From IMG/VR virus record IMGVR_UViG_3300029653_000081, positions 1-34,518 of that record: DNA of 34,518 nucleotides. One strand, written 5' to 3'. The translations under genes and the position numbers were made by a program. Positions 537 to 33,432 of the stretch are shown here, one piece after another. How positions within the stretch are numbered: the first letter of the stretch is position 1; each line of letters opens with the position of its first letter. This DNA comes from a virus. Its lineage: Duplodnaviria > Heunggongvirae > Uroviricota > Caudoviricetes. Below the pieces are notes generated by a model, which worked only from the letters and a program-made list of their open reading frames with translations, was not told where the DNA came from and searched no databases.

Positions 537-553
537 AATGCTCTAATAAATTT
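537..553 (+). promoter_or_regulatory. C1 repressor operator (Op51-like) upstream of the c4-icd-ant operon
   Basis: AATGCTCTAATAAATTT matches the asymmetric 17-bp P1 C1 operator consensus ATTGCTCTAATAAATTT at 16 of 17 positions. Confidence 0.8.
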
Positions 554-724
554 GTATTTTTAAGTCACGAATGCTATCTTTTCGCATCATATTGACCTTT
601 TAATCGTTCAGGCTTATAGTTCCGCCGTCGTAGCAAATTCTGCGACCGGGTTTAGCAGCCTGAATGATTGTGCGGACAGCCGCAGATATCCGATATTGCG
701 GTATTTTTGTGTCCGTAAAACCGC

Positions 725-805
725 GTTACGCCCAAATTATGGTGGGGCGTGATGGGGAGGCTTCGGCCTGCTGGTTTCACAATCGCCAGTCTGCTAACCC
801 CGTCA
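725..805 (+). ncRNA. c4: c4 antisense RNA (immunity-I repressor RNA); boundaries approximate
   Basis: Segment 778-797 (cacaatc...ctgctaa) is antiparallel-complementary to two target pairs: ttagcag/gattgtg at 652-672 and again at 822-856. The downstream gattgtg overlaps the icd Shine-Dalgarno (gagg 855-858). A UUCG-loop hairpin lies at about 747-760. Confidence 0.55.
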
Positions 806-867
806 CGTCCTGCCACCTGTTTAGCAGCGGGTAGCAGGTTGTTAAACCTGATTGTGAGGCCGTAACT

Positions 868-1089
868 ATGGTTAATGCCAATCCTTGCGCACGCCCAGAA
901 TTCATCTGGCGTTTCTATTCCTGTAAAAAACACCACTATCACTTCGTTATCGCAGCAACTGAAGACGAAGCACGCTCTCAATTGCCTGATGGCCCCTGCA
1001 TTTTTACTGCCTGTTTTTCAACTAACTCGCGCAATTCACTTAGTTACTGGAGCCTCCCCTTCTCTGCCGACGTTCAGGGGGGTTTATGA
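868..1089 (+). CDS. icd: Icd-like protein (interference with cell division), 73 aa
   Basis: ATG at 868 with SD GAGG 9 nt upstream; stop overlaps the ant start (ATGA at 1086-1089). Position between c4 and ant matches the P1 immunity-I operon. Confidence 0.6.
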   Translation: MVNANPCARPEFIWRFYSCKKHHYHFVIAATEDEARSQLPDGPCIFTACFSTNSRNSLSYWSLPFSADVQGGL

Positions 1090-2129
1090 AAAAACCTCTC
1101 GTCACCCGTAATGACATAGCCGAAGCGATCGCCCTGCATACTGCCTGTATACCGACACGGGAGATCCCCGGCGCAATTGCCAACTATTTCATGATAACCA
1201 GGCGTTTTTATACCCGAACAGATAAGGCTGTGATCAACAGGCTACTGATAGCCGAGATCAGGGATTATTTGATTGAACAAGGACGTCTACGTTACGCAAC
1301 GGTGGCAGCAGAAATGAGAAAGGAGGCACATAGAATGACCAGTAATAATTTGAATGTTAAAAAACCAGCACCTGTTGCTTCAGCAACGCCAGCACCAGCC
1401 GTGAATGTCATCCCCACCACCGGAGACACAATCGACAGCCTGACACTGTTAAAGATGGTCAATGAAGCGCGTAAGTTATGTGGGGAACCAGAGGTTCGGA
1501 ACAACAAATTCATCGAAAAAATACTCGACGAATTAGAAGGTGAGGACGGTTACACAAAAAGTGCAACCGTGCCGCCAGGTGGCGGTACGCCTATGGTTGT
1601 CATAACCATGACCTACAAACAAGCCCTGCGAGTCGCCGCGCGCGAATCGAAAGCGGTCCGCCGTTCGCTGATCGACAAACTGGAAGAATTGCAGCAGGCA
1701 AACTCCCCTACCCCATCGATCCCCCAAACATTACCAGAAGCCCTACGCCTGGCTGCCGAGTTGGCAGAACAGAAATTGCAGCTGGAACAACAGCTGGTGG
1801 CCGCAGCCCCTAAAGTCGATTTTGCCGACCGGGTATCAGTGGCTAATGGAATCCTGATCGGGAACTTTGCAAAGGTCGTTGGACTTAAGCAAAACGCCCT
1901 TTTCTCATGGTTGCGCCAGAACGGCATTCTCATGGCTTTTGGTGCGCGCAAAAACGTACCGCGCCAGCAGTACATTAACGCCGGGTATTTCACGGTGAAA
2001 GAAGTGGTGCTGGATGATGAAAATGGCTACCAGATACGGCTGACGCCCCAATTAACGGGTAAAGGCCAGCAGTGGTTAACTCGCAAGCTACTTGATGCTG
2101 GTTTGTTAAAACCAGTAGCAATAGGTTAA
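1086..2129 (+). CDS. ant: Antirepressor Ant (Ant1; an internal in-frame start could give Ant2)
   Basis: 347 aa. C-terminal about 130 aa (PQTLPEALRLAAELAEQK...GKGQQWL) is paralogous to the KilA C-terminus at 2293-3093, i.e. an antirepressor C-terminal domain. Translationally coupled to icd. Confidence 0.75.
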   Translation: MKKPLVTRNDIAEAIALHTACIPTREIPGAIANYFMITRRFYTRTDKAVINRLLIAEIRDYLIEQGRLRYATVAAEMRKEAHRMTSNNLNVKKPAPVASATPAPAVNVIPTTGDTIDSLTLLKMVNEARKLCGEPEVRNNKFIEKILDELEGEDGYTKSATVPPGGGTPMVVITMTYKQALRVAARESKAVRRSLIDKLEELQQANSPTPSIPQTLPEALRLAAELAEQKLQLEQQLVAAAPKVDFADRVSVANGILIGNFAKVVGLKQNALFSWLRQNGILMAFGARKNVPRQQYINAGYFTVKEVVLDDENGYQIRLTPQLTGKGQQWLTRKLLDAGLLKPVAIG

Positions 2130-2137
2130 CAAAAGAA

Positions 2138-2166
2138 AAAACCTGCCAGCAAACTGGCAGGTTTCT
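2138..2166 (+). terminator. Stem-loop terminator after ant
   Basis: aacctgccag-caaa-ctggcaggtt perfect 10-bp stem followed by tct. Confidence 0.5.
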
Positions 2167-2206
2167 GAGCAGATCGACCAACCCGATCTGGATCGAGTCA
2201 GAAAAA

Positions 2207-2223
2207 TTTGCTCTAATAAATTT
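2207..2223 (+). promoter_or_regulatory. C1 repressor operator (Op53-like) overlapping the kilA-repL promoter
   Basis: TTTGCTCTAATAAATTT, 16 of 17 to consensus; TTGCTC is a -35-like hexamer with TATAAG/ATAAGT about 16 nt downstream. Confidence 0.8.
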
Positions 2224-2292
2224 CGTTTTATAAGTGCAAAGAATCACCATTTCGAGCTGGTGATTGAAGGTTGATGCAAATTTGGAGAAAAA

Positions 2293-3093
2293 ATGCAACA
2301 AACATTCAATGCGGATATGAATATATCAAACCTTCATCAAAATGTCGATCCTTCAACCACTCTGCCTGTTATTTGTGGTGTTGAAATTACGACCGACCGC
2401 GCTGGCCGTTACAACCTTAATGCTCTACACAGAGCGAGCGGACTCGGTGCCCATAAAGCGCCAGCTCAATGGCTAAGAACGCTGTCAGCCAAACAGCTCA
2501 TCGAAGAGCTTGAAAAAGAAACTATGCAGAATTGCATAGTTTCGTTCGAAGGCCGTGGCGGCGGCACTTTTGCCCATGAATTGCTCGCTGTGGAGTACGC
2601 AGGCTGGATTTCTCCCGCGTTTCGGCTGAAGGTAAACCAGACATTTATCGACTATCGAGCCGGAAGATTACAACCTGCTATTCCGCAGAGTCTCCCTGAA
2701 GCTCTCCGTTTGGCTGCCGACCTGGCAGAGCAAAAGCAACGGCTGGAGCAAAAAATGCTTATGGATGCACCTAAAGTCGAATTCGCCGAACGCGTTGCTA
2801 CCGCCAGCGGGGTTCTAATCGGCAACTATGCCAAAGTGCTCGGTCTGGGCCAAAACTATCTCTTCACCTGGTTGCGTGATAACGGAATTCTGATCGCAAC
2901 CGGTGAACGCAGGAACGTCCCCAAACAAGAATACATATCCCGTGGGTATTTCACCCTTAAAGAAACCGTGATCGATACAAGCAATGGAAGCAGGATTTCT
3001 TTCACGACTCGTATAACCGGCAAAGGTCAGCAGTGGCTGATGAAGCGATTGCTTGATGCTGGTGTGCTGGTACCTGTCGCGGCAACGCGCTAA
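2293..3093 (+). CDS. kilA: KilA (KilA-N domain protein of the lytic replicon operon)
   Basis: 266 aa; ATG at 2293 with GGAG SD. The C-terminus is paralogous to Ant. Position under the Op53-like operator and upstream of repL. Confidence 0.75.
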   Translation: MQQTFNADMNISNLHQNVDPSTTLPVICGVEITTDRAGRYNLNALHRASGLGAHKAPAQWLRTLSAKQLIEELEKETMQNCIVSFEGRGGGTFAHELLAVEYAGWISPAFRLKVNQTFIDYRAGRLQPAIPQSLPEALRLAADLAEQKQRLEQKMLMDAPKVEFAERVATASGVLIGNYAKVLGLGQNYLFTWLRDNGILIATGERRNVPKQEYISRGYFTLKETVIDTSNGSRISFTTRITGKGQQWLMKRLLDAGVLVPVAATR

Positions 3094-3122
3094 CAGACGT
3101 AGTAAGAACCACCAGCATTGTA

Positions 3123-3968
3123 ATGCTGGCTAAAGTCACTTTCCTGAGCTGTATAACGATGAGCGATTTTACTTTTTCTGGCTATGAATTGGCCTGCTTT
3201 GTAACACACTCCGGTCTATCCCGTAGCGCCGGGCATATCCTGTCGCAATGTGCAAATCTAGCGGCAACAACCAGTGAATACTTCATTCACAAGCCTCACC
3301 GCCTGATCGCGGCAGAAACTGGTTATAGCCAATCAACCGTCGTTCGTGCATTCCGTGAAGCTGTAAACAAAGGAATCCTGTCTGTAGAGATTGTTATCGG
3401 CGATCACCGTGAACGTCGCGCTAACCTGTACCGGTTTACACCATCCTTTTTGGCCTTCGCACAACAAGCCAAAAATGCGCTGATTGAAAGCAAATTAAAG
3501 ATCTCTTCAGCGGCAACCAAGGTTAAAGCTGTTCTCGCTAAGACATTGGCTTTATTTAATTTTTTATCCACACCCCCATGTCAAAATGATACCCCCTCCC
3601 CCTGTCAGGATGACGTGGCAATAAAGAATAAGAAGTCACAAGTTAAAAAAACAAAAAGATCAGTTTCCGGCGGTGCCGGAACGAGCAGACTCAAAAAATT
3701 GACTTCATGGATCGCTGAGGCAAAAGCAAAGGCTGACAATCTGCGGTTATCCAAAAAACGCGCTCAAAAACATGAGTTCAAGCAGAAAGTAGAGGCGGCA
3801 GCGCGGAAATATGCTTACCTGAAGAACAAGCGTTCTCCTGATATTGGCGGGGTATCAAACTTCGATAATCTGCCGCATTGCATGATGGTAAACGAAGCTC
3901 TTAATGCGGTTTTAGCCAAAAATAAAGATAACGAACAATGGGGTATACCGGCGGGATTCAGAGGGTGA
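3123..3968 (+). CDS. repL: RepL-like lytic replication initiator; start uncertain
   Basis: 281-aa ORF immediately downstream of kilA in the same operon. Assigned by synteny with the P1 lytic replicon, not by motif. Confidence 0.55.
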   Translation: MLAKVTFLSCITMSDFTFSGYELACFVTHSGLSRSAGHILSQCANLAATTSEYFIHKPHRLIAAETGYSQSTVVRAFREAVNKGILSVEIVIGDHRERRANLYRFTPSFLAFAQQAKNALIESKLKISSAATKVKAVLAKTLALFNFLSTPPCQNDTPSPCQDDVAIKNKKSQVKKTKRSVSGGAGTSRLKKLTSWIAEAKAKADNLRLSKKRAQKHEFKQKVEAAARKYAYLKNKRSPDIGGVSNFDNLPHCMMVNEALNAVLAKNKDNEQWGIPAGFRG

Positions 3969-4194
3969 TAGATTGCTCTAATCTGGAGTCACCTGGCGTT
4001 TTCAGTATGGATTTTCTTTGGCGCGGTCTGGCCATTAGGGATCATGTTTGCTGCAACATTTCTTCTGATGTGGATATTCACCCTTCCCGGTGATTTCTAT
4101 AGAAAAAAAGCCAGACATTGATACAATCATTGCGGGTGCTTGAGGCTATCTGCTTCAGGCATTACCCGAAAAGCAGATAGAAGAAAGCCCCAGA

Positions 4195-4255
4195 TAACAT
4201 TACGCGTCCTGCAAGACGCTTAACATTAATCTGAGGCAATATCTATGCTTAGCAT
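4195..4255 (-). ncRNA. sok: sok-like antisense RNA (position inferred)
   Basis: Expected opposite the mok translation initiation region. A minus-strand TTGACC -35-like hexamer is at 4284-4289. Boundaries are not determined. Confidence 0.3.
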
Positions 4256-4451
4256 ACGTAGATTAGCCTCTTACCGACCAAAAGGTCAAGGAGAAGCAGG
4301 CTATGAAGCAGCAAAAAGCGATATTAATCGCTCTGATCGTCATCTGTTTAACCGTCATTGTGACGGCACTGGTAACGAGGAAAGACCTCTGCGAGGTACG
4401 AATCCGAACCGGCCAGACGGAGGTCACTGTCTTCACAGCCTACGAATCTGA
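4245..4451 (+). CDS. mok: mok-like overlapping reading frame
   Basis: 68-aa ORF starting upstream of, and overlapping out of frame with, the hok-like CDS, as in hok/mok/sok loci. Confidence 0.45.
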   Translation: MLSIRRLASYRPKGQGEAGYEAAKSDINRSDRHLFNRHCDGTGNEERPLRGTNPNRPDGGHCLHSLRI

Positions 4452-4458
4452 AAGGTAA
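4303..4458 (+). CDS. hok: Hok/Gef-family type I toxin (51 aa)
   Basis: ATG at 4303, TAA at 4456. Translation MKQQKAILIALIVICLTVIVTALVTRKDLCEVRIRTGQTEVTVFTAYESER has the Hok hydrophobic helix and the conserved TRK.LCE.R...E...F.AYES pattern. Confidence 0.85.
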   Translation: MKQQKAILIALIVICLTVIVTALVTRKDLCEVRIRTGQTEVTVFTAYESER

Positions 4459-4532
4459 GAGACCTGGCGGGGAGAGATCCTCGCCACTCTTCGTGTGTCA
4501 GGTATCCTCAATGCACCCTTTCCTCTCCAAAT

Positions 4533-4556
4533 AAAAAAGCTCCCGAAGGAGCTTTA
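4533..4556. terminator. Stem-loop between hok (+) and the minus-strand structural genes
   Basis: aaagctcc-cgaa-ggagcttt with A-run on one side; on the minus strand it is followed by TTTTTATTT, so it likely terminates the minus-strand operon. Confidence 0.6.
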
Positions 4557-4574
4557 AAATACAAGGGATGACTC

Positions 4575-5084: not shown

Positions 5085-5095
5085 ATAAAATCCTT

Positions 5096-6528: not shown

Positions 6529-6537
6529 TGTATTCCC

Positions 6538-10160: not shown

Positions 10161-11126
10161 TTATTCCCCAGCAGACATTTTCCCAATGATTTTTTTTATT
10201 GCTTCGTCAATTTCAGTTTGCACTTCAGACGGGAGTCTGGAGAACTCGTAGGCGACAACCCGTTTTTTCGGATCGGACTTCTTTCGGGCATATTGGCGAC
10301 GGTCAGAGAAGTCTCGCAGCTTCTCAACCACCACAGATTTAACCGGCGCGGGCTTCAGGCTTTTGCTTTCCGCTTTGAAGATAGCCAGTATCTTCGCTTT
10401 ATCCTCTTTCGCGCCCTCAGTCTCTGCAATTCGTTCGCGCACCGTATCAACCAGCTCTTCAATCGGCACGCTTTTAGCGTTAGCATCCTCGGCGATCTGG
10501 AGCAGTAACTGGTAATCTGGAAGGGCGAGATCGCTGGCTACGGGGAAGACAGCAATCATCTCATCCGGCACCGCGGCAGCCTGGAAAGCTCGCGTCACTT
10601 TTGCCTTTGAGATGTTCTCAGCTCGGGCGATCTCTTCTTTGGTCATATTCTTACCGTACATAACCTCGAAGCGTTTACCCAGCTCGCGCAGAGTGTGTTC
10701 GCGGGCTGTCTGGATATCAATGGCCAGCTGGCGGGCATCCGCCAGGCTGATCTCATCTTTCGTCACCAGAATCTCAAATTTCGTTTCATTGAAGATACAC
10801 GCAGCGCGGCGACGCGATCCGTCCAATACCTCAATGCGCTCCCCAACCATACGACCGATAGCCGGGAAGAACTGTTGCAATTTAATGGTGCGGGAAATAT
10901 CGCTTACCGACTCAGGGGTGAGCAGAGACTGATCGCGGCCGTTAACTGCCGGGTCAACGAACGTGCGCGACTCAATCTCACCACTCAGCACGACGGTAAG
11001 CAAGAATTTAGCCTGGCGGCCAGATTTTAGGGTAAAGGTTTTGGTGCCTTCACTGCCTTCAAGCATGCGAGCAAACTCGGAGCTATTCTTGCCCAGCACT
11101 CGTCCACGGGAAACTATTTTTTTCAT
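10161..11126 (-). CDS. parB: Partition protein ParB
   Basis: 321 aa with ParB-like segments (GRDQSLLTPESV, LDGSRRRAA, SKAKVTRAFQAAA); overlaps the parA stop. Confidence 0.9.
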   Translation of the reverse strand: MKKIVSRGRVLGKNSSEFARMLEGSEGTKTFTLKSGRQAKFLLTVVLSGEIESRTFVDPAVNGRDQSLLTPESVSDISRTIKLQQFFPAIGRMVGERIEVLDGSRRRAACIFNETKFEILVTKDEISLADARQLAIDIQTAREHTLRELGKRFEVMYGKNMTKEEIARAENISKAKVTRAFQAAAVPDEMIAVFPVASDLALPDYQLLLQIAEDANAKSVPIEELVDTVRERIAETEGAKEDKAKILAIFKAESKSLKPAPVKSVVVEKLRDFSDRRQYARKKSDPKKRVVAYEFSRLPSEVQTEIDEAIKKIIGKMSAGE

Positions 11127-12334
11127 GCCGCCTCACCCCTAACAAACTCAATTCGATCAAACACAGCCTTAGTGAAACGCTCGGCCTCGGTTCGTGCCTT
11201 CTTCAGCGCCTCTGCACTGCCTGGATACGATTGCGGGTTGGCACTGATTACGGTGTCGAAAGACTCGCCGCATCGCTCAAAGCCATCCAGACGAGGCAGA
11301 GAAGAGTCCAGAATGTTGCTGGCGTAAACCTCACGCGCAAGGCTGTGTGATGTCTCGTGATCGCGCTTGCCGGTCATCTTCGACATAAAACCAATGCTGG
11401 CGCTCAAACGCGGTTCTACGCCTTCCTCCTCCAGTTGCTCCAGCATTTCTGGCAGACGGGTGAGATATTTCAGTGTTGAGTGGAAGTCAACCTGGGCTGG
11501 TGGGGTAGGGGTAAGCAGCAAATCGCTGGCCGCCAGACCGTTGAGCAGGAACGGATCCAGGTGTGGACCGGTATCAATAAAGATAAAGTCATAATCATCC
11601 GCAACACGATCAATGATATTGCGTCGAAGGATTTCGTACTGATTTTGTCCGGGAAGATGCTCTTCAACCAGCTCTTTCCATTGGCTGGCAACAAAGCCAT
11701 CGTCGATAGAGGCTGGAATCACGTCTACGCCAGGAACGATGGTCGGACGAATCACCTCTTTGCGTAGCGTCTCCGCGTCCAGGTCGTTCAGCATCGCCTG
11801 CGCGGCGGTTTCCAGGATGGAACCAATACTGTGAGTATGGTCGAGGAACATTGTGCTGGATGCCTGAGGGTCAAGGTCAATTACCAGAATGCGCAGATCG
11901 TGACGCAGTAAATCCTGATGCACACGCAGAGCGTGCGCCAACGTGACTGTGGAAACCGTTTTGGATACGCCACCCTTCAGGTTTACGACAAAAATAACGT
12001 AAGGCGATTTGTGAATGTCGCGATATTTGGGGATCTTACGGTGGGCATAGATATCAATGACGTTCTGGATGGTCAGCGCGTACTGTTCAACGTTACCGAC
12101 CTGTTTCTTGTTGAACTGGTACCCATCATCTTCCATCTCTTTGATGGCCTGCTCCACAATACGGCGGCTCAGCTTCGGCAACTTTGCCACAGCGTTACGA
12201 GTGAACGTCTGATAATACTCGGTCTGATTGAACTCTTTGCGCTGATCTTCAATATCCTGACTCATGGCCTTAAGTAATGCGCTTGCACGAAGAGCTATGG
12301 TGCCGACACCGCCGTAATCGCGTTTCATCATCAT
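11123..12334 (-). CDS. parA: Partition ATPase ParA (type Ia)
   Basis: 403 aa; deviant Walker A NLKGGVSKTVST, plus VIDLDPQ and FIDTGPHLD motifs; long N-terminal extension typical of P1-type ParA. Confidence 0.9.
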   Translation of the reverse strand: MMMKRDYGGVGTIALRASALLKAMSQDIEDQRKEFNQTEYYQTFTRNAVAKLPKLSRRIVEQAIKEMEDDGYQFNKKQVGNVEQYALTIQNVIDIYAHRKIPKYRDIHKSPYVIFVVNLKGGVSKTVSTVTLAHALRVHQDLLRHDLRILVIDLDPQASSTMFLDHTHSIGSILETAAQAMLNDLDAETLRKEVIRPTIVPGVDVIPASIDDGFVASQWKELVEEHLPGQNQYEILRRNIIDRVADDYDFIFIDTGPHLDPFLLNGLAASDLLLTPTPPAQVDFHSTLKYLTRLPEMLEQLEEEGVEPRLSASIGFMSKMTGKRDHETSHSLAREVYASNILDSSLPRLDGFERCGESFDTVISANPQSYPGSAEALKKARTEAERFTKAVFDRIEFVRGEAA

Positions 12335-16100: not shown

Positions 16101-16117
16101 ATTGCTCTAATAAATAT
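16101..16117 (+). promoter_or_regulatory. C1 repressor operator upstream of the uhr-rdgC-dmt operon
   Basis: ATTGCTCTAATAAATAT (16 of 17); TTGCTC -35-like with TTATAT/TATATC about 16-17 nt downstream. Confidence 0.8.
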
Positions 16118-16188
16118 TGTTTTTTATATCGTGTTTTCGGTACCATTCAGCCATCGCCCTTCAATGGGCATTTGTTTGGAGTCGTCAG

Positions 16189-20250: not shown

Positions 20251-20316
20251 AATAATAAATTAATTAGTGCACATGTGCTCTTTGATATAGCGCACATTAA
20301 CATCGGGAGAATAATC

Positions 20317-21600: not shown

Positions 21601-22274
21601 TGGCACCCACAATTTATCACCGTATCGACGGTACCAAATACAGGAATGTCTGGGTTGTTGGTGATCTGCATGGTTGCTACACCAGACTGATGTCCGAACT
21701 CCATCGTGTGGATTTTGACCCGGCGCAGGATTTACTGATATCGGTCGGCGACCTTATCGATCGCGGTACTGAAAATGTCGAATCTCTGGAACTATTGCAG
21801 ATGCCCTGGTTCAGGGCAGTAGTGGGGAACCATGAGCTGTTGATGCTCGATGCGTTAAGTCCTGATGGCAACGTGAATAACTGGCTAATGAATGGCGGTC
21901 AATGGTTCTTCATGCTGGACGCTGATCAGGAAATATTAGCCAGGGCGCTGGTGGAGTTGGTAAGACGACTGCCCTATATCATTGAGTTGAACACCGGGCA
22001 AGAAACTATCGTTATAGCCCATGCCGACTATCCGGATAATGAATATCAATTCGGTAAGGAGGTGCCGCTTTTCAACGTTGTCTGGGCGCGCGAGCGTATC
22101 AGTGATTCGATGGATGATATTGGTGGCGAAATTTCGGGCGCAGATCGTTTTATCTTTGGTCACACTCCGGTGAAAAGCCCGAAGACATTCTGGAATCAGC
22201 ATTATATCGACACAGGTGCCGTATTTTGCGGAAACCTGACATTGAAGAAAGTGAAAGGTGATGGTGCAGCATGA
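21582..22274 (+). CDS. Lambda-type Ser/Thr protein phosphatase (metallophosphatase)
   Basis: GDLHG, GDLIDRG and GNHE motifs; start may be ATG at 21597 or 21600. Confidence 0.85.
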
Positions 22275-22971
22275 AGATTGCTTTAGTTCTTCGCTCTGGT
22301 GGTGACTATAACGCTTCCGATGTGCAGTGGCTGGTTAATCAACTGCCAAAAGACTATGAAATTATTTGCCTGACAGACCTGAAGTGTTTACATGTACCTG
22401 GCGTCAAAGTTATCCCATTGATCAACCAGTGGCAAAAGTGCCGTGGCTGGTGGGCGAAAATCGAGTTGTTCCGACCGGATATAACCGATGATCTGTTCTA
22501 TCTGGATTTGGACACGGTTATTGCCGGTGATATACGCCCAATCCTAGAGAATCCACCAACCAACTTCACCATGCTTAGGGATTTTTACCATCCACAATAT
22601 CGTGGCAGCGGGGCCTGTGGATACCAAATAGTGTAAAAGCGCATATCTGGAGTGCATTCTGGCAAGATCCGGAAGGTTGGATTGCTCGTTGTGTTACTAC
22701 TGAATGCTGGGGTGATCAGGGGTTTTTGCGGAAGGTTATGGGTGATGATACACCAGCATTTCAGGATCTGTATCCGGGATGGTTTGTAAGTTACAAGGCC
22801 GATGTTGTGGAACCTGGTTCGAAATATGCGAGCGCGCGTTACTCCAGGGGGAATGGGGCATTACCAAAAGACTGCCGAATAATCTTTTTCCACGGCAAAC
22901 CGCGACCTCGCGAAGTGTCAGAGGATTGGATTCCCCTTACCAGCTCGTTTTTTGAGCAAGTATCAGAATAA
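22271..22971 (+). pseudogene. Glycosyltransferase-like gene (DxD motif) split by a one-base frame change
   Basis: Frame 2 (22271-22636) contains YLDLDTVIAGDI; frame 1 is open from 22579 and continues to 22971 (..ECWGDQGFL..). The frames overlap around a G4 run at 22610-22613. Confidence 0.5.
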
Positions 22972-22972: not shown

Positions 22973-22989
22973 ATTGCTCTAATAATTCC
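22973..22989 (+). promoter_or_regulatory. C1 repressor operator, left member of an inverted pair
   Basis: ATTGCTCTAATAATTCC; the 5' 13 nt match the consensus. Confidence 0.7.
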
Positions 22990-22997
22990 ATATTTTT

Positions 22998-23027
22998 AAA
23001 ACGTGATGTACACTCATCACGTTTTTT
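22998..23027 (+). terminator. Rho-independent terminator between the operator pair
   Basis: aaaacgtgatg-tacact-catcacgtttt (11-bp stem) followed by tt. Confidence 0.7.
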
Positions 23028-23038
23028 ATTAGAGCAAT
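23022..23038 (-). promoter_or_regulatory. C1 repressor operator, right member of the inverted pair
   Basis: Minus-strand ATTGCTCTAATAAAAAA; arrangement resembles bidirectional paired operators described for P1. Confidence 0.7.
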
Positions 23039-23052: not shown

Positions 23053-23271
23053 ATGTGGCCATTCCGACGGAAATATCACTACTGGCTGATCGCCTTTGTT
23101 ACGCCGACCGGCGGTATCAGGCATGTCATCACCAGGTATCGCAACAAGAGACTCACCTTAGCCAGAATTTTACAGGCTGCCATAGGTGAGGGACTGGATA
23201 CAAATTGCGTAGTCCTTCCTCCTTCATACTTAGGAAAAATGACCGAAGCACAAGCTAATACGGAACTTTGA
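23053..23271 (+). CDS. Small basic hypothetical protein (72 aa)
   Basis: First ORF downstream of the operator pair; no motif recognised. Confidence 0.35.
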   Translation: MWPFRRKYHYWLIAFVTPTGGIRHVITRYRNKRLTLARILQAAIGEGLDTNCVVLPPSYLGKMTEAQANTEL

Positions 23272-23272: not shown

Positions 23273-24535
23273 ATGAGCACTTCAGCACAAAAGCAATCAA
23301 TCGAAAATGTATCTATCCCTGATGTCCTGAATGCCGGTATCCCGGCCATTATCCAGAACATCCGGGCCGCGCAACGCCGCGTTAGTTGTGATGACCTCAC
23401 AGCACGTTTTTTTGATAATGCGGTTCAGTCAGCGGAGATGCTTCACGCACAGCTTATTGATGTTTATAACGCAGAAGCTGATAGCCATAACTCCCTGGTA
23501 GATGCAGCTGAAAATATGCAGTTGGATCTCGGTCTGAAGGGTAAAGAAATTGAAGAGCTTCAGCTGCAAATTGAACATTTGAAACGCCAGCAACAGGACG
23601 CGATCGACGATGCGACGCATGACTCCAACCAGCGTGCTGATAATGCCGAACGTATAAGCATTGAGCTGGAAACAAAACTCAATGAAATGACCGCGATGGT
23701 TGAACTGCGGAACTCACAGATTTCAACGCTAAAATCTCAATATAAAGAGATCATGAAACTTGATCCTTTTAACCTTGAGAAACGCTATAACAAAGCTAAA
23801 AGCGAGCGACAGGAACTGCGTAAGCAGGTCGCCGACCTTAACCAACAGCTCAAAAAAACTATTAAAGATGCAAGCGAGGCGCGCGTGGCATTTGCTAATA
23901 AAAAAGCAGAGGTTACCGCGCTGGTTAATGAGAATGCCAAATTTGCGACGCTCAAGAAGGAAATGTATGGCATTACTGAGCGCCGTTTCCCTGCAAGCAA
24001 ACTTCATCCGACGTTAGGGCAAATCTCCTTCTTCCCGCGCCTCCTGGCTTATGGGATCTCATCGCCTAAAGAGTTCAATAACGAGCGTCCTTATATCGTT
24101 TCTAAGCTGGACTTTGCTTATCAGTTCTGCTGCGACATGGGCTATGCCATTGATATCCGAATCAACGAATGGTTGATGCCAAACTTCCAGCCGTTGGCAA
24201 TTTTCCGCGAGTTTCAGCCGGAAGGTTGGGTAGAGTTCTTCCATGAATTGATCTGTAAAGAGATGGAAAGCCGCCGCCCGGAATTGGTCCGTCGAGTTGA
24301 GTGGGCGCAAGAGGTTATGTTGGCAGATGCAGAGCTGCCGTTCGAACCGGAATTCATTGATGATCTGGCAACTAAAGGGCTGCATACCCTGTTTGATGTG
24401 GTTACCCGCCGTCATGAGCAGTTGGTTGTCGAATTGGGTTTAGAGGAAACTGCGGCAAGAAGACTTCTCGATGTTTGCTATGCACGTAGCGATGCATGGG
24501 AAAAAGAGAACGGCGGCACTATTTACGTTCGCTGA
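23273..24535 (+). CDS. Coiled-coil protein with unknown C-terminal domain (420 aa)
   Basis: Residues about 60-250 are heptad-like and Q/E/K-rich (EELQLQIEHLKRQQQDAIDDA...); C-terminal region contains FAYQFCCDMGYAID. Confidence 0.5.
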   Translation: MSTSAQKQSIENVSIPDVLNAGIPAIIQNIRAAQRRVSCDDLTARFFDNAVQSAEMLHAQLIDVYNAEADSHNSLVDAAENMQLDLGLKGKEIEELQLQIEHLKRQQQDAIDDATHDSNQRADNAERISIELETKLNEMTAMVELRNSQISTLKSQYKEIMKLDPFNLEKRYNKAKSERQELRKQVADLNQQLKKTIKDASEARVAFANKKAEVTALVNENAKFATLKKEMYGITERRFPASKLHPTLGQISFFPRLLAYGISSPKEFNNERPYIVSKLDFAYQFCCDMGYAIDIRINEWLMPNFQPLAIFREFQPEGWVEFFHELICKEMESRRPELVRRVEWAQEVMLADAELPFEPEFIDDLATKGLHTLFDVVTRRHEQLVVELGLEETAARRLLDVCYARSDAWEKENGGTIYVR

Positions 24536-24607: not shown

Positions 24608-25114
24608 TTGAGTATTTTCAATAAACACGCACACCAGGAACGTCCGTACATCGTCATAGTAGATATTGATGGGACGATATCAGAGGCAACGGAAGACAGG
24701 CTGCATTTACTTCCACCACCTGGCAAAGGTGCATTAACAGAGCACTGGAACGAGTTTAACCTTGCCTGTGACACTGATGCTCCCATCACTCCAGTTATTG
24801 ATATGGTGCGCCAGTTATTTAACGTTTACACGGTCTGGTTTGTAACCGGGCGCTGTGAGATCGCAAGGGATAAAACACGAGCCTGGCTGCGGAAGTACGT
24901 AACAAACGGGGCTGAGCCTTTGCTATCTATGCGTCCTGCCACCGATGACAGAAATGACGGTCCAGCAAAGATTGATCTCCTGAAGAAAATTGGTCTAAGT
25001 AAAATTGCGTTCGCGCTGGAAGATAAGATTGAAGTGGCGCGTGTGTTCAGGAGTCATGGCGTACTTACATTAATGGTCAGGGAGTATGAAAATGCGCTTC
25101 TTCATCAACAATAA
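24608..25114 (+). CDS. HAD-superfamily phosphatase-like protein (168 aa)
   Basis: TTG start 6 nt after AGGAGG; motif I IVIVDIDGT and motif II-like WFVTGR. Confidence 0.55.
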   Translation: MSIFNKHAHQERPYIVIVDIDGTISEATEDRLHLLPPPGKGALTEHWNEFNLACDTDAPITPVIDMVRQLFNVYTVWFVTGRCEIARDKTRAWLRKYVTNGAEPLLSMRPATDDRNDGPAKIDLLKKIGLSKIAFALEDKIEVARVFRSHGVLTLMVREYENALLHQQ

Positions 25115-25130
25115 TTGTTCTAATAAATCT
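25114..25130 (+). promoter_or_regulatory. C1 repressor operator abutting the HAD gene stop
   Basis: ATTGTTCTAATAAATCT (15 of 17); TTGTTC -35-like with TAAAAC about 17 nt downstream. Confidence 0.65.
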
Positions 25131-25212
25131 TGATTTTTAAAACAGAGAAAGTAAAAATAAAAACATGCCGCAAGGCGCGGCATGTTTCCAATCAATCACA
25201 GGAGCTGAAAAT

Positions 25213-25299
25213 ATGAACACGGCATTCAAAATCATTATGGCCGCGATCTATTTCTGGCTGTTCTCTATCACTTTTGACGGCATCGTCGCGCATGGGTAA
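25213..25299 (+). CDS. Small hydrophobic peptide (28 aa)
   Basis: AGGAG 8 nt upstream of ATG; MNTAFKIIMAAIYFWLFSITFDGIVAHG*. Preceded by a perfect 8-bp hairpin (catgccgc/gcggcatg, about 25165-25185). Confidence 0.4.
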   Translation: MNTAFKIIMAAIYFWLFSITFDGIVAHG

Positions 25300-25378
25300 G
25301 GGGAGTATATTAGCCATTTGGAACCCCACGAGCTCTTGCGGGTTTAATTAAGAACCCGCAAGAAAAACACGAATTGGG

Positions 25379-28300
25379 CTATATTTTTCCGCCTACGCCT
25401 TTAAACTTCTCAATAAACGAGACGATTTTCTGGAAAACTGCCTGTTTTTTCGTTTTATATTGCGGATTCAACGGACTAAGTTTTGGTAATGTTTCGTTTA
25501 ATTCTGTGCCATTTTCGGTGGCGTATTCGCGTTTTAAAGACGTGCGAATATAGCGTTTTGCTGCATCTTCATTGAGATTTTCTTCTTTTATCAATGCTTC
25601 TGCTTCACGTTGCTGTTCGCGTTGAGCAAACGTAAAGAATGCCTCAATGATACTGGCTTTGTCTGGTAAATCATCCAGGTTCGTTTGCTGAATAAAATCG
25701 ACCACCAGGCCCTCTTTCGCCCGGTTCCCCAGGCTTGAACGAATTAAGCGTTTGACCTCTTCGATCATTTCGCCCTTGCCTTTATTTTGTCTGTTGTGTT
25801 CGAAAATCAGTCCAAGGATATAATCCAGGTTTATTTCCTGAGACTTCAGCAAATCGACCTCAAAAACCACGTCATCCCAGTCAGTGGTTGATTTCTCTTT
25901 TTTCTCAGCTTCTTTCTCACGGCGCTGCCAGTCGCGAATATCGTTATAGGCAGAACGATAATCCTGAATCTTGCGATCAGCAGGGAGACGAATTGTTTGC
26001 AATTCAGCGAACTTTTCATCATCCACATAATGTTCTGCTTTGAATTTTTCTACCGCAACAGGATCGCTAAGATCGATTTGTTGCAGGGCTTTTAGCGTGG
26101 CAAATTCATCATAGTTTTGCAGGATGTTCTCGGCACGCAGGTATTCGCCAAACAGTTTAACGAAGTCTTTCTTCTCTTTTTCACTTTCAATACTGGCAGG
26201 GTCAGGGAACCGTTGTTCCAGTTCTGAAACTACTGCCATAAAGCCGCGTTTGGCTTCACCGGTGGCAGCATCAGTAAAACCTTCCATATACTCTGCATAA
26301 CTCTTTTCTAACACCACATTTTTGGTATTTTTATCACCAAACAGCGTTATGGCATCAATGGTTGAGCGTTCCAGATCCCGAAAAGTGACAATGTTACCGA
26401 AGGTTTTAGTGGCGTTATAAATGCGGTTGGTGCGGGAAAATGCCTGCATCAGGCCGTGAAAACGCAAGTTTTTATCGACGAATAGCGTGTTCAATGTTGG
26501 AGCGTCGAAGCCGGTTAAAAACATCCCAACGACAATTAACAGATCGATATCCTGATTTTTAACCCGTTGGGCTAAATCGCGATAGTAGTTCTGAAAACCG
26601 TTACCGTCGGTGCTGAAGTTAGTTTTAAAATAGCTGTTATACTCACGAATTGCAGCGTCAAGAAACTCTTTAGCACTGCTGTCCATTGCGCTGGTATCAA
26701 AAGTTTCATCGGAAATTTCACCAATGGCATTTTGTTCTTCATTAGCGGCAAAGGAGAAGATTGTCGCAACACGCAGCGGTTTATAAGTTGCAGATTTATT
26801 AGCGGCTTCCTCTTGTAACCGTTTAAACGCCGCGTAATAGGCTTTTGCAGCATCCACGCTGCTCACTGCCAACATAGCATTAAAACCTTTTGCGCCAGGG
26901 AAAGTACGGTGCGTCTTCTGGCGGAAGTTATTCAGAATATATTGCGTAATTTCCTGTATACGCATGGGATGAAGAAACGCCTGCTGATTTTCAGCCGCAC
27001 TTAGTTTTTTCTCGTCAGTTTCTGTCTCTAAAGACTTAAACTGTGGCCGCACATCGTTGTAGTCCACCTTGAATTTGAGCACTTTTTCATCACGAATCGC
27101 ATCGGTAATTACATACGAATGCAATTCACGACCAAATACGCTGGCGGTCGTTTCTGAGCCTAAGGCGTTTTCCGGGAAAATAGGTGTGCCGGTAAAACCA
27201 AACTGATAATAGCGTTTGAATTTCTTCTTCAGGTTTTTCTGCGCTTCTCCAAACTGGCTGCGGTGGCATTCATCAAATATAAACACCACTTGCTGATTAT
27301 ATACAGGCAGGTCGCTTTCTGCTTTCATCAGGTTATTGAGTTTCTGAATAGTAGTGACGATAATTTTGTTATCGTCCTTATCCAGATTTCGTTTAAGGCC
27401 TGCGGTATTTTCCGAGCCGTTGACGCTGTCTGGCGAAAAACGCTGATATTCCTTCATGGTCTGGTAATCGAGGTCTTTCCTGTCGACCACAAAGAAGACT
27501 TTATCAATAAAGTCCAGCTCTGTTGCCAGACGCGCGGCTTTAAAGCTGGTGAGGGTTTTACCAGAACCGGTAGTGTGCCAGATATACCCACCGCTTTCCG
27601 GTTTTGACCAGTTCTTCGCTGTAAAGGAACTCTTAATTTTCCACAGAATGCGCTCGGTGGCGGCAATCTGGTACGGTCGCATCACCAGTAGCGTCTGACT
27701 ACTGTCAAAAACGCTGTAGTTCACCAGAACATTCAGCAGAGTATGTTTCTGGAAAAAGGTAGCGGTAAAGTCTTTGAGGTCTTTAATCAGCGTGTTGTCT
27801 GATTTCGCCCAATTCATGGTGAAGTCAAAACTGTTTTTATCGCGCTTTGTCGTGTTGGCAAAATAACGGGTATCGGTGCCGTTAGAAATGACAAACAGTT
27901 GCAGATACTTAAACAGGGAATTTTCGCTGTTAAAACTCTCTTTACTGTAACGATGTATCTGGTTGAAAGCCTCACGAATCGCCACCCCGCGTTTTTTTAG
28001 TTCGATTTGCACCAGCGGTAAACCATTAACCAGGATCGTGACGTCATAACGGTTAGCATGAGAACCCGTCTGTTCAAACTGCTGGATAATCTGCACCTTA
28101 TTGCGCATGAGATTCTTTTTATCTATCAAATAGATGTTCTCAAGTCGCCCGTCATCAAAAATAAAGTCGCAGATATAGTCGATATGGATTTTACGGGTTT
28201 TATCCAGAATACCATCGCTGGGGTTGTCCAGATACTGCTCCGTGAAGCGCCGCCACTCGCTGTCATTAAACATCACACCATTGAGGCTCTGAAGCTGTTC

Positions 28301-28495
28301 CCGAACATTGGACAGCATTGCCGACTGTGATTTTACGGAAATAAATTCATAACCCTGATTTTGCAGGTCCTGAATCAGTTCACGTTCCAGGTCCGATTCG
28401 CTCTGGTAGCTGTCGCCTGTTGGCTCAGCTTTGATGTACTTATCAAGAACGATAAAGTTATTGGATTCAGCAATGGTGTGTGTCTGATGAGTCAT
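25379..28495 (-). CDS. hsdR: Type I restriction enzyme R subunit HsdR (1038 aa)
   Basis: Helicase motifs TTGSGKT and [10 protein letters not shown]; size and position after hsdM-hsdS. Confidence 0.9.
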
Positions 28496-28616
28496 AGCGC
28501 ATCCTTTGTGCCGTCTGGCAAGGGCCGGAAGGGGGGTAATGGTGACTTCCGGCGCGTAAAAAATAGTCTATATACTGACCGGGTGTTAAGGTGGTCCGAT
28601 CGGTAGCAATGATCAA

Positions 28617-29822
28617 TTAATTACTGGCAGTTTCAGGTTTCGGGAAACTGAACAGTAAATCACGGTAGTATTCGTATTGTTTCTGGCGCAACTCGATTTC
28701 ACGCGGAAGACCTTCGGTGATGGAAGCTGCGATTGCATCAAACTTATCCAGAATATCCACAATACGCCCCTGTTCGTCTAAAGATTTTTGAGGGTGAGAT
28801 GGGTATGGAATAGGTACTCTGACTTGTTTCAGTGCATTAGCATTAAACTGTGGTTGCCCACCACCAGATACTAATTTATTAGCCTGTTCCCAAAAAAAAT
28901 CACTTTGTGCAAAGTGCCAGTAATATTTGGCATTAATAATCGTTTTATTTAGGTTCAACTTTATTAAAAAACCAGCGTATACTGCTGGATAATCTTCTTC
29001 AAAAATCATTGTTTTACCAAAGGTTGCCCCAGTTCTTGCCATGAGTAAATCATTTTTGTCTAAGGTATATTTCTCATTTTCCTCATTTAATTCAACGTAC
29101 ATTGGGTTTTCTTTCGATAGCTTCCCGTCTTTATTTATGTCAGTAATTCTCACGAAACGGGCATCTCCTGAATCCATGGCTTTGGCTGCATATCCATATG
29201 TAAAATCTCCAATTTCCCCCAAAGTCTTCCACTCAACCTCACCATCTTTAAAACTCAACAACTGGTCGCGATAGTAGTTGTACTGTTTTTTACGCATGTT
29301 AAGCTCAGCGGTAAGCTCAGCGGTAAGTGCAGTAAATTTATCCAGAATCCGAACGATTTCAGACTGGATGGCAAGGGATTTTTCCGGATTATCCGGGCAG
29401 GGGATGGGGATAGGGAAATTCTCTAAGGTTGATAGCACGATATATGTCATTGCCGCGCTATTTGTTCTTTCCTCGAGATATTTCTTCAGGCTATGGCTAA
29501 GCACAAAATACAAAAATCTAACACTTACATTTTCGTCGAAATTTGTCAGAACATAGGTGCGCTGATAAGCCTCAAACTTGCCGATGTAATGCTTCACCTC
29601 ACCAACATTCGCATTGCCTGCAATCAGCAATGCCTCTGTATCCCAGCGGAATTTATCAATTTTGCTTGTCTCTTTGGCTGTCGTGAAGAACATATACTCT
29701 CCATCATCAACAGCCGCATTCGCATTAAGCTTTCCTGTTTCAATTTTGCAAGTTTGCCCAAGTGTCTTCCACTCAACCTCAACCCCATCCAGCAATTTTT
29801 CCAGATAACTCATCTCGCTCAT
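28617..29822 (-). CDS. hsdS: Type I specificity subunit HsdS (401 aa)
   Basis: Two target-recognition halves each ending in a conserved repeat ([19 protein letters not shown] and [19 protein letters not shown]); 4-nt overlap with hsdM. Confidence 0.85.
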
Positions 29823-31381
29823 TTCTGCACCTCGCAGCCTTCAATTTCAGCCACAATTGCATCAATATCTTTACGCAACTGGTCGATTTTGCTGACCGTG
29901 GTTTTCAGCTCTGCATTCAGCTCACCGATATCGATAATTTCGCGGTTATCTTTCGCTTCCACATAGCTGCTCACCGACAGGTTATAGTCATTCGCGACAA
30001 CAGTCTCAAACGCAACAGATTTCGCCAGATGAGCAACATCTTCCTTGCTGGCAAATACCTGCATAATCTGTTCGATATGGGCATCGGTCAGGATATTGTT
30101 GTTGGTTTCTTTTTTGAACAGTTCGCTGGCATCAATAAACTGAACTTTGGTATCCGTTTTATGTTTAGACAGCACCAGAATGTTTACAGCAATAGTGGTG
30201 CCAAAGAACAGGTTCGGTGCCAGTGAAATCACGGTTTCGACATAGTTATTATCGACCAGATACTGACGGATTTTCTGCTCCGCGCCGCCACGGTAAAAAA
30301 TACCCGGGAAGCAGACAATCGCAGCACGACCTTTGGCCGAAAGATAGTTCAGCGCATGTAGTACAAACGCAAAGTCAGCTTTGGATTTGGGGGCCAGGAC
30401 GCCAGCCGGGGCAAAACGTTCATCGTTAATCAGCGTCGGGTCATCGCTGCCAATCCATTTCACCGAATACGGCGGGTTAGAAACGATGGCATCAAACGGT
30501 TTTTCATCTCTGAAGTGTGGCTCAGTCAGTGTATTACCCAGCTTGATATCAAACTTGTCGTAGTTGATGTTGTGCAAAAACATGTTCATACGTGCCAGGT
30601 TATAGGTTGTATGGTTGATTTCCTGACCAAAAAAGCCTTCTTCGATGATATGGTTATCAAACTGCTTTTTAGCCTGCAACAACAGTGAGCCGGAACCCGC
30701 TGCCGGGTCGTAGATTTTGTTAACGTTGGTCTGCCCGTGCATAGCCAGTTGTGCAATCAGCTTGGAGACGTGCTGCGGTGTAAAGAACTCACCGCCTGAC
30801 TTACCGGCATTTGCCGCATAGTTAGAAATCAGGAACTCATAGGCATCACCGAACAGGTCAATCTGATGTTCGTTGAAGTCACCAAGTTTTAACCCTTCAA
30901 CCCCTTTCAGAACCGCAGCCAGGCGGGCATTTTTATCTTTAACGGTGTTACCCAGGCGGTTACTGGTGGTATCGAAATCAGCAAACAAACCTTTGATGTC
31001 TGCTTCTGAAGGGTAGCCGTAAGCAGAACTTTCGATAGCAACGAAGATGCTGTTTAAATCTGCGTTCAGTCTGTCATTGGTATTTGCTTTCGCAGCTACG
31101 TTGCAGAAAAGCTGACTGGGGTAGATGAAGTAGCCTTTAGTTTTGATGGCATCGTCTTTAATGTCATCAGTAATTACGCTGTCATCCAGTTTCGCATAAC
31201 AGATACTGTCATCACCGGCTTCAATATAACTGGAAAAATTTTCGCTGATAAAACGGTAGAAAAGTGCGCCCAGAACGTATTGCTTAAAATCCCATCCATC
31301 GACCGAACCCCTGACATCGTTAGCAATTTGCCAGATTTGACGATGAAGCTCTGCACGTTGTTGAATACTTGTCATTTTCAT
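29819..31381 (-). CDS. hsdM: Type I N6-adenine methyltransferase HsdM (520 aa)
   Basis: NPPY motif ([10 protein letters not shown]) and AdoMet-binding [11 protein letters not shown]. Confidence 0.9.
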
Positions 31382-31489
31382 CCACTTATTTCAGGCTTAT
31401 GTAATTGGCGGTGATTCTACAGCAACTTGGATGCTTTAGCAGTTCGGACATTAGGCTACGAATGACCTGCCTAGAGGTTTGTTAAGCCG

Positions 31490-31552
31490 CAAAGTGCTGG
31501 TGCTTTATGCCTGTGAAGTTTATAATTGTGTACACATAACGAGTACACGAGG
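31490..31552 (+). promoter_or_regulatory. phd-doc promoter with Phd operator palindromes
   Basis: TATAAT at 31521-31526 followed by palindromic GTGTACAC (31528-31535) and GAGTACAC (31541-31548), then the SD. Confidence 0.65.
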
Positions 31553-31557
31553 TGTTT

Positions 31558-31779
31558 ATGCAATCCATTAACTTCCGTACCGCGCGCGGCAACCTTTCTG
31601 AAGTGCTCAACAATGTTGAAGCCGGGGAAGAGGTTGAAATCACCCGCAGAGGTCGTGAGCCAGCAGTAATTGTCAGCAAGGCTACTTTCGAAGCCTACAA
31701 AAAAGCGGCGCTGGATGCTGAATTTGCATCCCTGTTTGACACCCTGGACTCCACCAACAAGGAACTGGTTAACCGATAA
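31558..31779 (+). CDS. phd: Phd antitoxin (73 aa)
   Basis: [39 protein letters not shown]... matches P1 Phd as recalled; stop overlaps doc start (TAATG). Confidence 0.95.
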
Positions 31780-32159
31780 TGAGGCATATATCACCGGAAG
31801 AACTTATTGCGCTTCATGATGCGAATATAAGCCGCTACGGCGGCCTGCCGGGAATGTCAGATCCGGGTAGGGCAGAGGCCATTATCGGGAGAGTTCAGGC
31901 CAGAGTTGCCTACGAAGAGATCACCGACCTTTTCGAAGTCTCCGCCACCTACCTGGTGGCTACAGCGAGAGGGCATATATTCAATGATGCCAATAAGCGT
32001 ACCGCGCTAAACAGCGCGCTGCTATTTCTACGCCGTAACGGGGTGCAGGTATTTGATTCACCTGAACTGGCAGACCTTACTGTAGGCGCTGCGACTGGCG
32101 AGATATCTGTATCTTCTGTCGCCGACACGTTACGTAGATTGTATGGTTCTGCGGAGTAG
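31779..32159 (+). CDS. doc: Doc toxin (Fic-fold kinase, 126 aa)
   Basis: Fic-type motif [10 protein letters not shown]; tight coupling to phd. Confidence 0.95.
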
Positions 32160-32163
32160 ATTA

Positions 32164-32343
32164 ATGGCACGCAAATACAACAAATTGTCCCGTGAAGCGT
32201 TAAAGATGCTTCTTGATGGCGTGAGTCGCCGCGAGGTAAAGCAATACCTGGTTGGTAAGCAAATTGGAGCCAGGACTGCTATTGCTGTGTTATGCCGTCA
32301 GGAAATGGTTGTGCTTAAACAGAGAATGCCGGGCAGCAGATAA
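32164..32343 (+). CDS. Post-doc small protein (pdcA-like, 59 aa)
   Basis: ATG 5 nt after the doc stop; assigned by position. Confidence 0.4.
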   Translation: MARKYNKLSREALKMLLDGVSRREVKQYLVGKQIGARTAIAVLCRQEMVVLKQRMPGSR

Positions 32344-32370
32344 AGCCCAATCAGTGATTAAAGGTGTGAT

Positions 32371-33414
32371 GTGAAAGCCGTAATTACTCCCTTTGTACAG
32401 AAAGAGCTTGGCCTCGCCACGTTCAAAGTGGATCAGGAGGTCAGAAAGCTGGTGGAGGCTGGCCGTAAATTTATTATGGAGCCGGTGCCGCGTGAGTTAA
32501 TCGAGCACATGGAAGACGGCCTCGTTGTTACCGAGCAAACCATGGCAACAAATGAGGCGTTGCAGCCGTTTTTTAACAGCGATGAACTGTTTCGCCGTAT
32601 TGGTGGAATTGACGCGCTGGTGGCGTGGTTGCGCAGGAAAGAGGGGCAATGCCAGGCCGCAGATCGTAGTTGGTGTGACAACCATATTGTCCACGCTGAA
32701 CGAGACAATAGCGCGGTGTTGTTGTGCTGGCATCACGATCACCATTATCGGATGCGTGGTTTTAATGAGCTGAAAGAAACGCTGCACAATAATCGCGTTA
32801 ACTGGATACTGGATGTCGCCCGTCAGGAAATGGGCCTTTCAAATAGCCATGATTTAAGTATTCAGGAGCTGTGCTGGTGGGCTTTCATGCGCAACATGAT
32901 GCACCTGATGCCGGAAGAAGTCTGCCGCATATCAATAAATAAGATGAAGGCTATTCCGCAGGATAGCGGACCTCTGAAAGAGGCGGATATTCGCCCGTAT
33001 GACGATCGCGCTACAGCATATGTTCAGATGATGGAAGAACGCGCCGCGCCGATGCGTGCAAAAGTATGCCCTGTGGATGTTGACTCCGACCCAGGTATGG
33101 CGCATTTCAAAATACCAAAACTTCAATCGCTAAAATTGCCCGAGTACATGGACTTTGTGGCTTCCCGTCCATGCTGTGGCTGTGGAGCTGCGGGAGCTGG
33201 CGCTCACATTACGCCTTATATAGTTCGTCATAGTCGATTATGCGCGCATGACATTTATGCTATTCCTCTGTGCCAGTCATGCCAGCGTGATATTGAGCGT
33301 GACCGCGATAATTGGGAGAAGACGCACGGTAGGCTGGCGATGCATCAACGATTGTTCTTTGATTACGCGCTTGGAGTTGGCGCTATCACAAGTCATTCGT
33401 CGAGTGTTAGATAA
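32371..33414 (+). CDS. Post-doc protein (pdcB-like, 347 aa), Cys/His-rich
   Basis: GTG start with AAAGG SD; Cys/His clusters ([31 protein letters not shown]) suggest metal binding. Confidence 0.5.
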
Positions 33415-33415
33415 A

Positions 33416-33432
33416 ATTGCTCTAATGTATTG
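33416..33432 (+). promoter_or_regulatory. C1 repressor operator upstream of lpa
   Basis: ATTGCTCTAATGTATTG, immediately after the pdcB stop. Confidence 0.7.

Follow-up and report, generated by a model that had tools for sequence, protein, structure and literature searches.

A short asymmetric motif recurs between the genes of a 34,518-nucleotide (nt) stretch of caudovirus DNA (IMG/VR record IMGVR_UViG_3300029653_000081, positions 1 to 34,518; hereafter the window, meaning the whole stretch analysed), and it raises the question of whether these copies are operators of the phage repressor C1 and, if so, which genes they would keep silent in a lysogen. Dispersed C1 operators have been mapped in phage P1 since the late 1980s, and a preliminary description of the window had proposed that seven copies of such an operator divide it into repressor-controlled units. 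We searched both strands with the motif ATTGCTCTAATAAATTT, allowing at most three mismatches, and recovered exactly the seven proposed positions (537, 2207, 16101, 22973 (+), 23022 (−), 25114, and 33416), where chance predicts 0.28 matches; none of 100 shuffled controls reached seven. A position weight matrix (PWM) trained on 12 curated P1 operators, the scan that the preliminary description had itself suggested, set the same seven sites apart at 19–26 bits, against a null maximum with a mean of 13.8 bits and a 95th percentile of 17.6 bits. All seven are thus real, and the list was one short: the PWM places an eighth site at 16.5 bits on the minus strand, Oppp (former Op83), which had been overlooked.

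All remaining PWM matches score at most 12.7 bits, within the null range, and those at 24989, 2224–2240, 15585, 30177, and 26792 (10–12.7 bits) are left unclaimed. The match at 2224–2240 on the minus strand (TTTGCACTTATAAAACG, 12.2 bits, a noise-level score) abuts the operator OrepL tail to tail. None of the seven sites is a perfect match to ATTGCTCTAATAAATTT, and three carry three mismatches, as would be expected if they were chance matches in AT-rich DNA with no common function. The shuffles and the PWM null rule out such an origin, to which we assign practically no weight: the one to three mismatches per site fall in the degenerate 3′ half and are shared with P1's own operators, the C5-to-T change (C5T) in the site at 25114 (Op88) apart, and the sites are conserved in Cronobacter phage JK004. 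The invariant operator core, positions 3–5 and 7–11, is intact in all seven except for this C5T change.

The window is a segment of a P1-family (Punavirus) phage-plasmid, 97–98% identical to P1 and P7, and every site maps onto a protein_bind feature labeled "phage repressor C1" in the curated P1 records AF234172 and AF234173. The bases are those of the P1 operators at six of the seven sites reported earlier, and at six of the eight full-length sites when Oppp is included. P1 carries 22 dispersed C1 operators with the consensus ATTGCTCTAATAAATTT (PMC8546580), which are drawn on its standard genome map (PMC8201110), and C1 binding to them, which Lxc/Bof enhances, is known from the literature cited in PMC8546580; a literature search by operator names returned nothing relevant. 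The attribution to C1 in the preliminary description is therefore correct, and the sites (Table 1) can with high confidence be regarded as orthologues of the known P1 operators, carried in a P1-like phage-plasmid remnant. The operator set is already known, and its recovery here is a rediscovery of established P1 biology. What the window itself provides is sequence identity, positional orthology, and consensus promoter overlap, from which, together with the P1 literature, we infer that C1 would bind and repress at these sites.

Table 1. Operators, promoters, hairpin, selected genes, and homology segments of the window
Feature	Position	Strand	Sequence or counterpart	Remarks
Oc4 (former Op51)	537–553	+	AATGCTCTAATAAATTT	same as curated P1 operator; would control c4 RNA, icd, ant1/ant2
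OrepL (former Op53)	2207–2223	+	TTTGCTCTAATAAATTT	would control kilA (2293–3093), repL (3123–3968)
Truncated Orlf (former Op55)	3972–3988	+	ATTGCTCTAAT	first 11 bases remain (3972–3982); 8.1 bits
Odmt (former Op68)	16101–16117	+	ATTGCTCTAATAAATAT	precedes uhr (16189–16473), hrdC (16466–17371), dmt'-'pmgM (17368–20250)
Oppp (former Op83)	20257–20273	−	TGTGCACTAATTAATTT	PWM 16.5 bits; followed by pmgN, pmgO, pmgP, ppp, pmgQ
OpmgRa (former Op86a)	22973–22989	+	ATTGCTCTAATAATTCC	1 nt past pmgQ stop
OpmgRb (former Op86b)	23022–23038	−	ATTGCTCTAATAAAAAA	precedes pmgR (23053–23271), pmgS (23273–24535), pap (24608–25114)
OpmgT (former Op88)	25114–25130	+	ATTGTTCTAATAAATCT	C5-to-T change, ATTGTTC for ATTGCTC
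Olpa (former Op94)	33416–33432	+	ATTGCTCTAATGTATTG	would control lpa (33503–33955), late-promoter activator
PpmgN-like sigma-70 promoter	20225–20253	+	GCGACA-17-TAAAAT	consensus scan; matches predicted PpmgN of P1 record
Plpa (former P94)	33430–33457	+	TTGCTA-16-TATTAT	consensus scan; curated sigma-70 promoter; −35 overlaps Olpa 3′ end
Hairpin	22998–23030	+	AAAACGTGATG-TACACT-CATCACGTTTT	followed by T run; between the Op86 operators
Small open reading frame	25213–25299	+	MNTAFKIIMAAIYFWLFSITFDGIVAHG	28 aa, hydrophobic; GGAG ribosome-binding site; predicted
hsdR	25379–28495	−		EcoR124_C domain; converges on Op88 promoter
hsdS	28617–29822	−		type I restriction-modification operon
hsdM	29819–31381	−		type I restriction-modification operon
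Segment	142–3982		P1 AF234172 47745–51585	sim through repL
Segment	4533–10064		P1 AF234172	bplB through gene 23
Segment	10065–13000		P7 type	par region; parB 10161–11126, parA 11123–12334
Segment	13001–19964		P1 AF234173	repA through dmt
Segment	19993–25303		P1 AF234173 78852–84163	3′ end of pmgM through pap and Op88
Segment	25304–31481	−	no P1 counterpart	hsdR, hsdS, hsdM
Segment	31482–34444		P1 AF234173	phd through pacA

Stop codons, promoters, and a T-rich extension

The operators hug the ends of genes. The preliminary description had noted this for three of them, behind pap (its HAD gene), pdcB, and repL, and it holds equally for two more, behind pmgQ and behind a fused gene, dmt'-'pmgM, described below. 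The pap stop codon ends at 25114, which is also operator base 1 of Op88, so that one base is shared. The pdcB stop ends at 33414 and Olpa begins at 33416; the pmgQ stop ends at 22971 and OpmgRa begins at 22973; and the fusion stop ends at 20250, with Oppp beginning at 20257. Behind repL, whose stop codon ends at 3968, the partial site reported at 3972 is indeed an operator stump, Orlf (Op55) cut after base 11. Over the nine sites, seven are co-oriented with the genes and five begin no more than 6 nt from a stop codon.

Each operator had also been said to be followed at about 16–17 nt by a −10-like hexamer. Counted from the operator end, this fits one of the seven sites and is rejected; counted from the TTGCTC within the operator, it survives loosely, since at six of the seven sites a spacer of 15–18 nt leads to a hexamer that agrees with TATAAT in at least four of six positions (TTTAAG, TATAAG, TATATC, TAAAAC, and TTTAAT were found), compared with 14% under the null and 34% in AT-rich DNA. 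TTGCTC, operator positions 2–7, is itself −35-like, and the P1 record predicts promoters of this kind for OpmgRa and OpmgT, so the repeated element could be read as a reiterated promoter, with TTGCTC as −35, the T-rich TTTAAG/TAAAAC as −10, and repressor binding as a secondary matter. We consider this improbable. In most of the hexamers the critical A2 and T6 are missing, and those promoters that the P1 record gives without a "predicted" label avoid these hexamers and sit in other registers: in P53/PkilA the −10 (TCTAAT) is formed by operator positions 6–11, inside OrepL; in P51a and P94 the −35 lies at the operator 3′ end (of Op51 and Op94, respectively); and at Op99c a TTGACA stands directly upstream of the operator. 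Furthermore, binding of C1 to the P1 sites is established in the literature.

Promoter overlap in the window itself is of several grades. For Olpa it comes from the consensus scan, which returned Plpa, and the −10 of this promoter is conserved in JK004. The same scan returned the PpmgN-like promoter, whose −10 ends 4 nt before Oppp. For Oc4 and OrepL the overlap is transferred from the curated P51a and P53, while for Odmt, OpmgRa, and OpmgT the promoters in the P1 record are predicted only.

On their 3′ side the operators continue into a T-rich stretch at positions 19–25, 55–80% T and often followed by AA or AG (in the window, for example, at 555–561, 2225–2231, 16119–16125, 22991–22997, 25132–25138, and 33434–33440); we suggest that this stretch is what had been taken for a −10 box. 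It was characterized on the whole P1 genome OP279344 (20 sites) and 40 kb of JK004 (14 sites). At least five T occur at positions 19–25 in 13 of the 20 P1 sites and 8 of the 14 JK004 sites, where the null gives 2–3.5% (binomial p < 1e-8), and between orthologous sites of the two phages identity is 85% in the operator, 68% at positions 18–26, and 44–47% in the other flanks. Its register is fixed to the operator, while the promoters occupy at least three different registers; we therefore tentatively take the T-tract to belong to the operator and not to be a −10 box, and its fixed register again speaks against a reiterated promoter. Phage D6, a possible independent check, was uninformative, since the 12 kb of it that we scanned lacks P1-type operators. 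We offer tentatively the idea that the functional C1 operator might span ~25 bp instead of 17 bp, with a T-tract that could be contacted or bent by C1 or by the C1-Lxc co-repressor complex; the extension may already have been described in older P1 papers.

Units that C1 would hold silent

As in P1, C1 would bind as a monomer to each asymmetric 17-bp site, and each site would overlap part of a sigma-70 promoter: the −35 for Op51 and Op94, the −10 for Op53, and the region of the transcription start for Op83. Binding there would silence the early and lytic operons of the lysogen. The units fronted in this way would be c4-icd-ant (Oc4), kilA-repL (OrepL), uhr-hrdC-dmt'-'pmgM (Odmt), pmgN through pmgQ (Oppp), pmgR-pmgS-pap (OpmgRa and OpmgRb), a 28-aa open reading frame (ORF) alone behind OpmgT, where P1 has its pmgT group, and lpa (Olpa), whose product, once expressed, would switch on the late genes. 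Several of the gene identities can be recovered independently: Rfam places the C4 RNA at 735–820 and its a1b1 target at 614–666, downstream of Oc4; KilA-N and ANT domains are found behind OrepL; and the identity of Lpa is supported by the Pfam family BPP1_LPA.

No operator precedes hsdRSM, phd-doc-pdcAB, the hok/sok module, par, rep, or the Lpa-dependent late genes. We predict that all of these except the late genes remain active in the lysogen; in P1, the phd-doc operon must be expressed in that state. Because no terminator-like hairpin was found between pdcB and lpa, C1 at Olpa may also block read-through from phd-doc.

The inverted pair at 22973/23022 had been described as bracketing a strong terminator. 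The hairpin between these Op86 operators is real and its pairing is conserved, whereas the word "strong" is unproven, and a terminator consensus scan did not flag the element at 22998–23030, because its U run is absorbed into A-U pairs. The core (22998–23025) is an 11-bp stem with four G-C pairs (−13.4 kcal/mol, z −5.9) followed by the T run, so that a stable stem-loop leads directly into a U run, as in an intrinsic terminator; if it is read as an 8-bp stem, the tail after the stem is TTTTTTATT. The two operators form the outer arms of a larger, 66-bp palindrome (−26.9 kcal/mol, z −7.3), in which the A run of OpmgRb is the complement of the hairpin T run. JK004 and a second IMG/VR lineage retain the pairing despite different stem sequences: at two pairs both partners have changed (G-C became A-U, and A-U became G-C), several substitutions create G-U pairs that can form only in plus-strand RNA, and 96.8% of the alignment cells are paired, compared with 38–72% when the partners are slid. 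These compensatory changes give the hairpin modest support, drawn from few independent lineages, and it is plausible that it acts in plus-strand RNA to end the pmgN–pmgQ operon. The −10 predicted for PpmgR in P1 falls in the 5′ arm of the hairpin; judging from that −10, PpmgR transcripts would start in the loop and thus escape it.

Behind Op88, a type I restriction-modification operon (25304–31481, minus strand) replaces pmgT through humD of P1, and nearly all of the Op88 operon has been lost to this insertion. Homology between these flanks and the EcoDXXI and R124/3 hsd loci is already remarked on in the P1 record, and the Op88–hsdR junction is common in P1-like plasmids. Among IMG/VR contigs, the C5T variant of Op88 occurs in three of nine of the hsd type and in none of 41 of the pmgT type, although the three may be a single clone, and four JK004 operators, Olpa among them, have T at position 5. 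The pattern may reflect relaxed constraint on Op88. Inactivation by C5T is unsupported either way, given C at this position throughout the P1 sites yet T in the four of JK004.

We rejected the possibility that the hsd insertion had left Op88 fully orphaned, since a conserved small ORF persists downstream. This 28-aa frame is present in P1, where it is unannotated in AF234173, is conserved at the protein level in JK004, and is the sole plus-strand gene left between Op88 and the convergent hsdR; transcripts that start at the Op88 promoter and pass this frame would enter hsdR antisense. Between Op88 and the small ORF, at 25158–25190 on the minus strand, lies a 15-bp GC-rich hairpin with a long T run, which looks like a terminator for leftward transcription, in the direction of hsdR. 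The same hairpin occurs in P1, which is without hsd, and JK004 has a hairpin of different sequence (GGCCGC/GCGGCC) at the equivalent position.

A rearranged element: Functional or relic operators

Several features of the window weigh against a complete and functioning P1 regulatory system. The c1 gene is not within the 34,518 nt (in P1, c1 lies beyond pacB). About 10.6 kb of P1 (AF234173 68231–78852) is deleted between 19964 and 19993, which removes the operators Obana and Obanb (Op72a,b) and O26 (Op82) together with the tRNAs, tciABC, ban, dbn, and tail genes 5, 6, 24, 7, 25, and 26. pmgQ (22271–22971, plus strand) has suffered a 1-nt deletion relative to P1 near 22611, which splits it into ORFs of 121 and 81 aa and makes it a pseudogene. 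Orlf is truncated, another mark of a decaying element, and position 5, a C in 20 of 20 P1 operators, is T in Op88. Insertion sequences (IS) also bound the P1-derived segment on both sides: the window opens inside an IS1 end (1–141) and closes inside an IS903-like end (34445–34518), which breaks pacA at 34445.

These observations, namely the two IS ends, the deletion, and the damage to pmgQ, Orlf, and Op88, could be explained if the operators were relics, that is, parts of an IS-bounded defective remnant without its own repressor, in which the sites are idle or are served in trans by C1 from a co-resident P1-like prophage. The 10.6-kb deletion has also fused dmt to pmgM: the 960-aa ORF at 17368–20250 (plus strand) consists of Dmt, cut in its Dam domain, joined in frame to the PmgM C terminus, and it carries C5 and N6 methyltransferase domains and an intein (Hint and LAGLIDADG matches). 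An identical fusion protein occurs on 11 Logan contigs of up to 20–50 kb, and contigs that end at such lengths are expected where repeats lie at both ends. Neither PLSDB nor the complete E. coli genomes contain the junction, and a scan of genome contigs with Lpa returned near-identical relatives only.

On the other hand, the same 11 contigs apparently derive from separate sequencing runs, which points to a stably maintained arrangement, and the P1 bases are preserved throughout six of the eight full-length sites. The ORFs of icd, ant, kilA, repL, and lpa are all intact, which argues that repression is still needed and present; in P1, unrepressed expression of kilA or icd harms the host, and repression is therefore probably still supplied. 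Moreover, an IS in pacA does not by itself eliminate a c1 gene downstream. We accordingly regard relic operators as a minority possibility, worth keeping in mind but considerably less likely than not, and retain the reading in which the sites are P1 operators that C1 may still occupy.

The remaining departures from P1 concern cargo. P1 homology stops at 3982, inside Orlf, and the breakpoint, after operator base 11, joins a hok/sok-type module (3983–4532) that takes the place of rlfA, rlfB, and pmgF. Within it, Rfam identifies sok at 4134–4308 and Pfam identifies Hok at 4303–4458, with an overlapping mok-like ORF at 4245–4451. The P7-type par region is also found in P1 isolate OP279344.

The discovery value of the operator set is small, as the P1 reference genome annotates C1 operators base by base. 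Its value is for annotation: it shows which cargo lies behind repressor-controlled promoters (the antirepressor, kilA-repL, the methyltransferase fusion, the phosphatases, and lpa), which does not (the type I hsd genes, hok/sok, phd-doc, and the partition and replication genes), and that rearrangements have damaged two operators. The T-tract extension, the operator pair that encloses a conserved hairpin, and the conserved small ORF behind Op88 are modest additions to a classic system.

Relation to known repressor systems

The closest comparison is P1 itself, whose operators share with those of the window the 17-bp asymmetric consensus, the gene junctions, the orientation, and the overlapping promoters. 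The window differs from P1 in the Op55 stump, in the C5T change of Op88 with loss of pmgT–humD, in the altered Op83 (Oppp departs from the P1 site at positions 1–2), in the deletion of Op72a, Op72b, and Op82, and in that c1 lies outside it. P7 and other Punavirus phage-plasmids (SJ46, RCS47, and P1-like plasmids with hsd beside pap) have the same operator set; the dmt'-'pmgM junction sets the window apart from the Punavirus phage-plasmids in PLSDB.

JK004 is a diverged P1-like phage, with an Lpa only 67% identical, and it has operators at orthologous junctions: after pap, after pdcB, and, inverted, before pmgN. It also has an inverted operator pair with a hairpin before pmgR, whose stem sequence differs through compensatory changes, and the T-rich 3′ extension. 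Phage D6, a more distant P1 relative, has c1-like, lpa, pacAB, and pmg genes, but 12 kb of its genome including c1, lpa, and pmgR yielded no P1-type operator scoring over 10 bits, so the motif belongs specifically to the P1/P7/JK004 lineage.

Outside this lineage, the stoperators of mycobacteriophage L5 offer a parallel. There, the monomeric repressor gp71 recognizes an asymmetric site present in many dispersed copies, which are mostly co-oriented and follow stop codons after short gaps. The window sites resemble them in outline and geometry, while the repressor and the motif are unrelated. P1 operators, unlike L5 stoperators, have been described as promoter-overlapping and as blocking initiation; by analogy with L5, sites such as Olpa might in addition serve as roadblocks to transcription.

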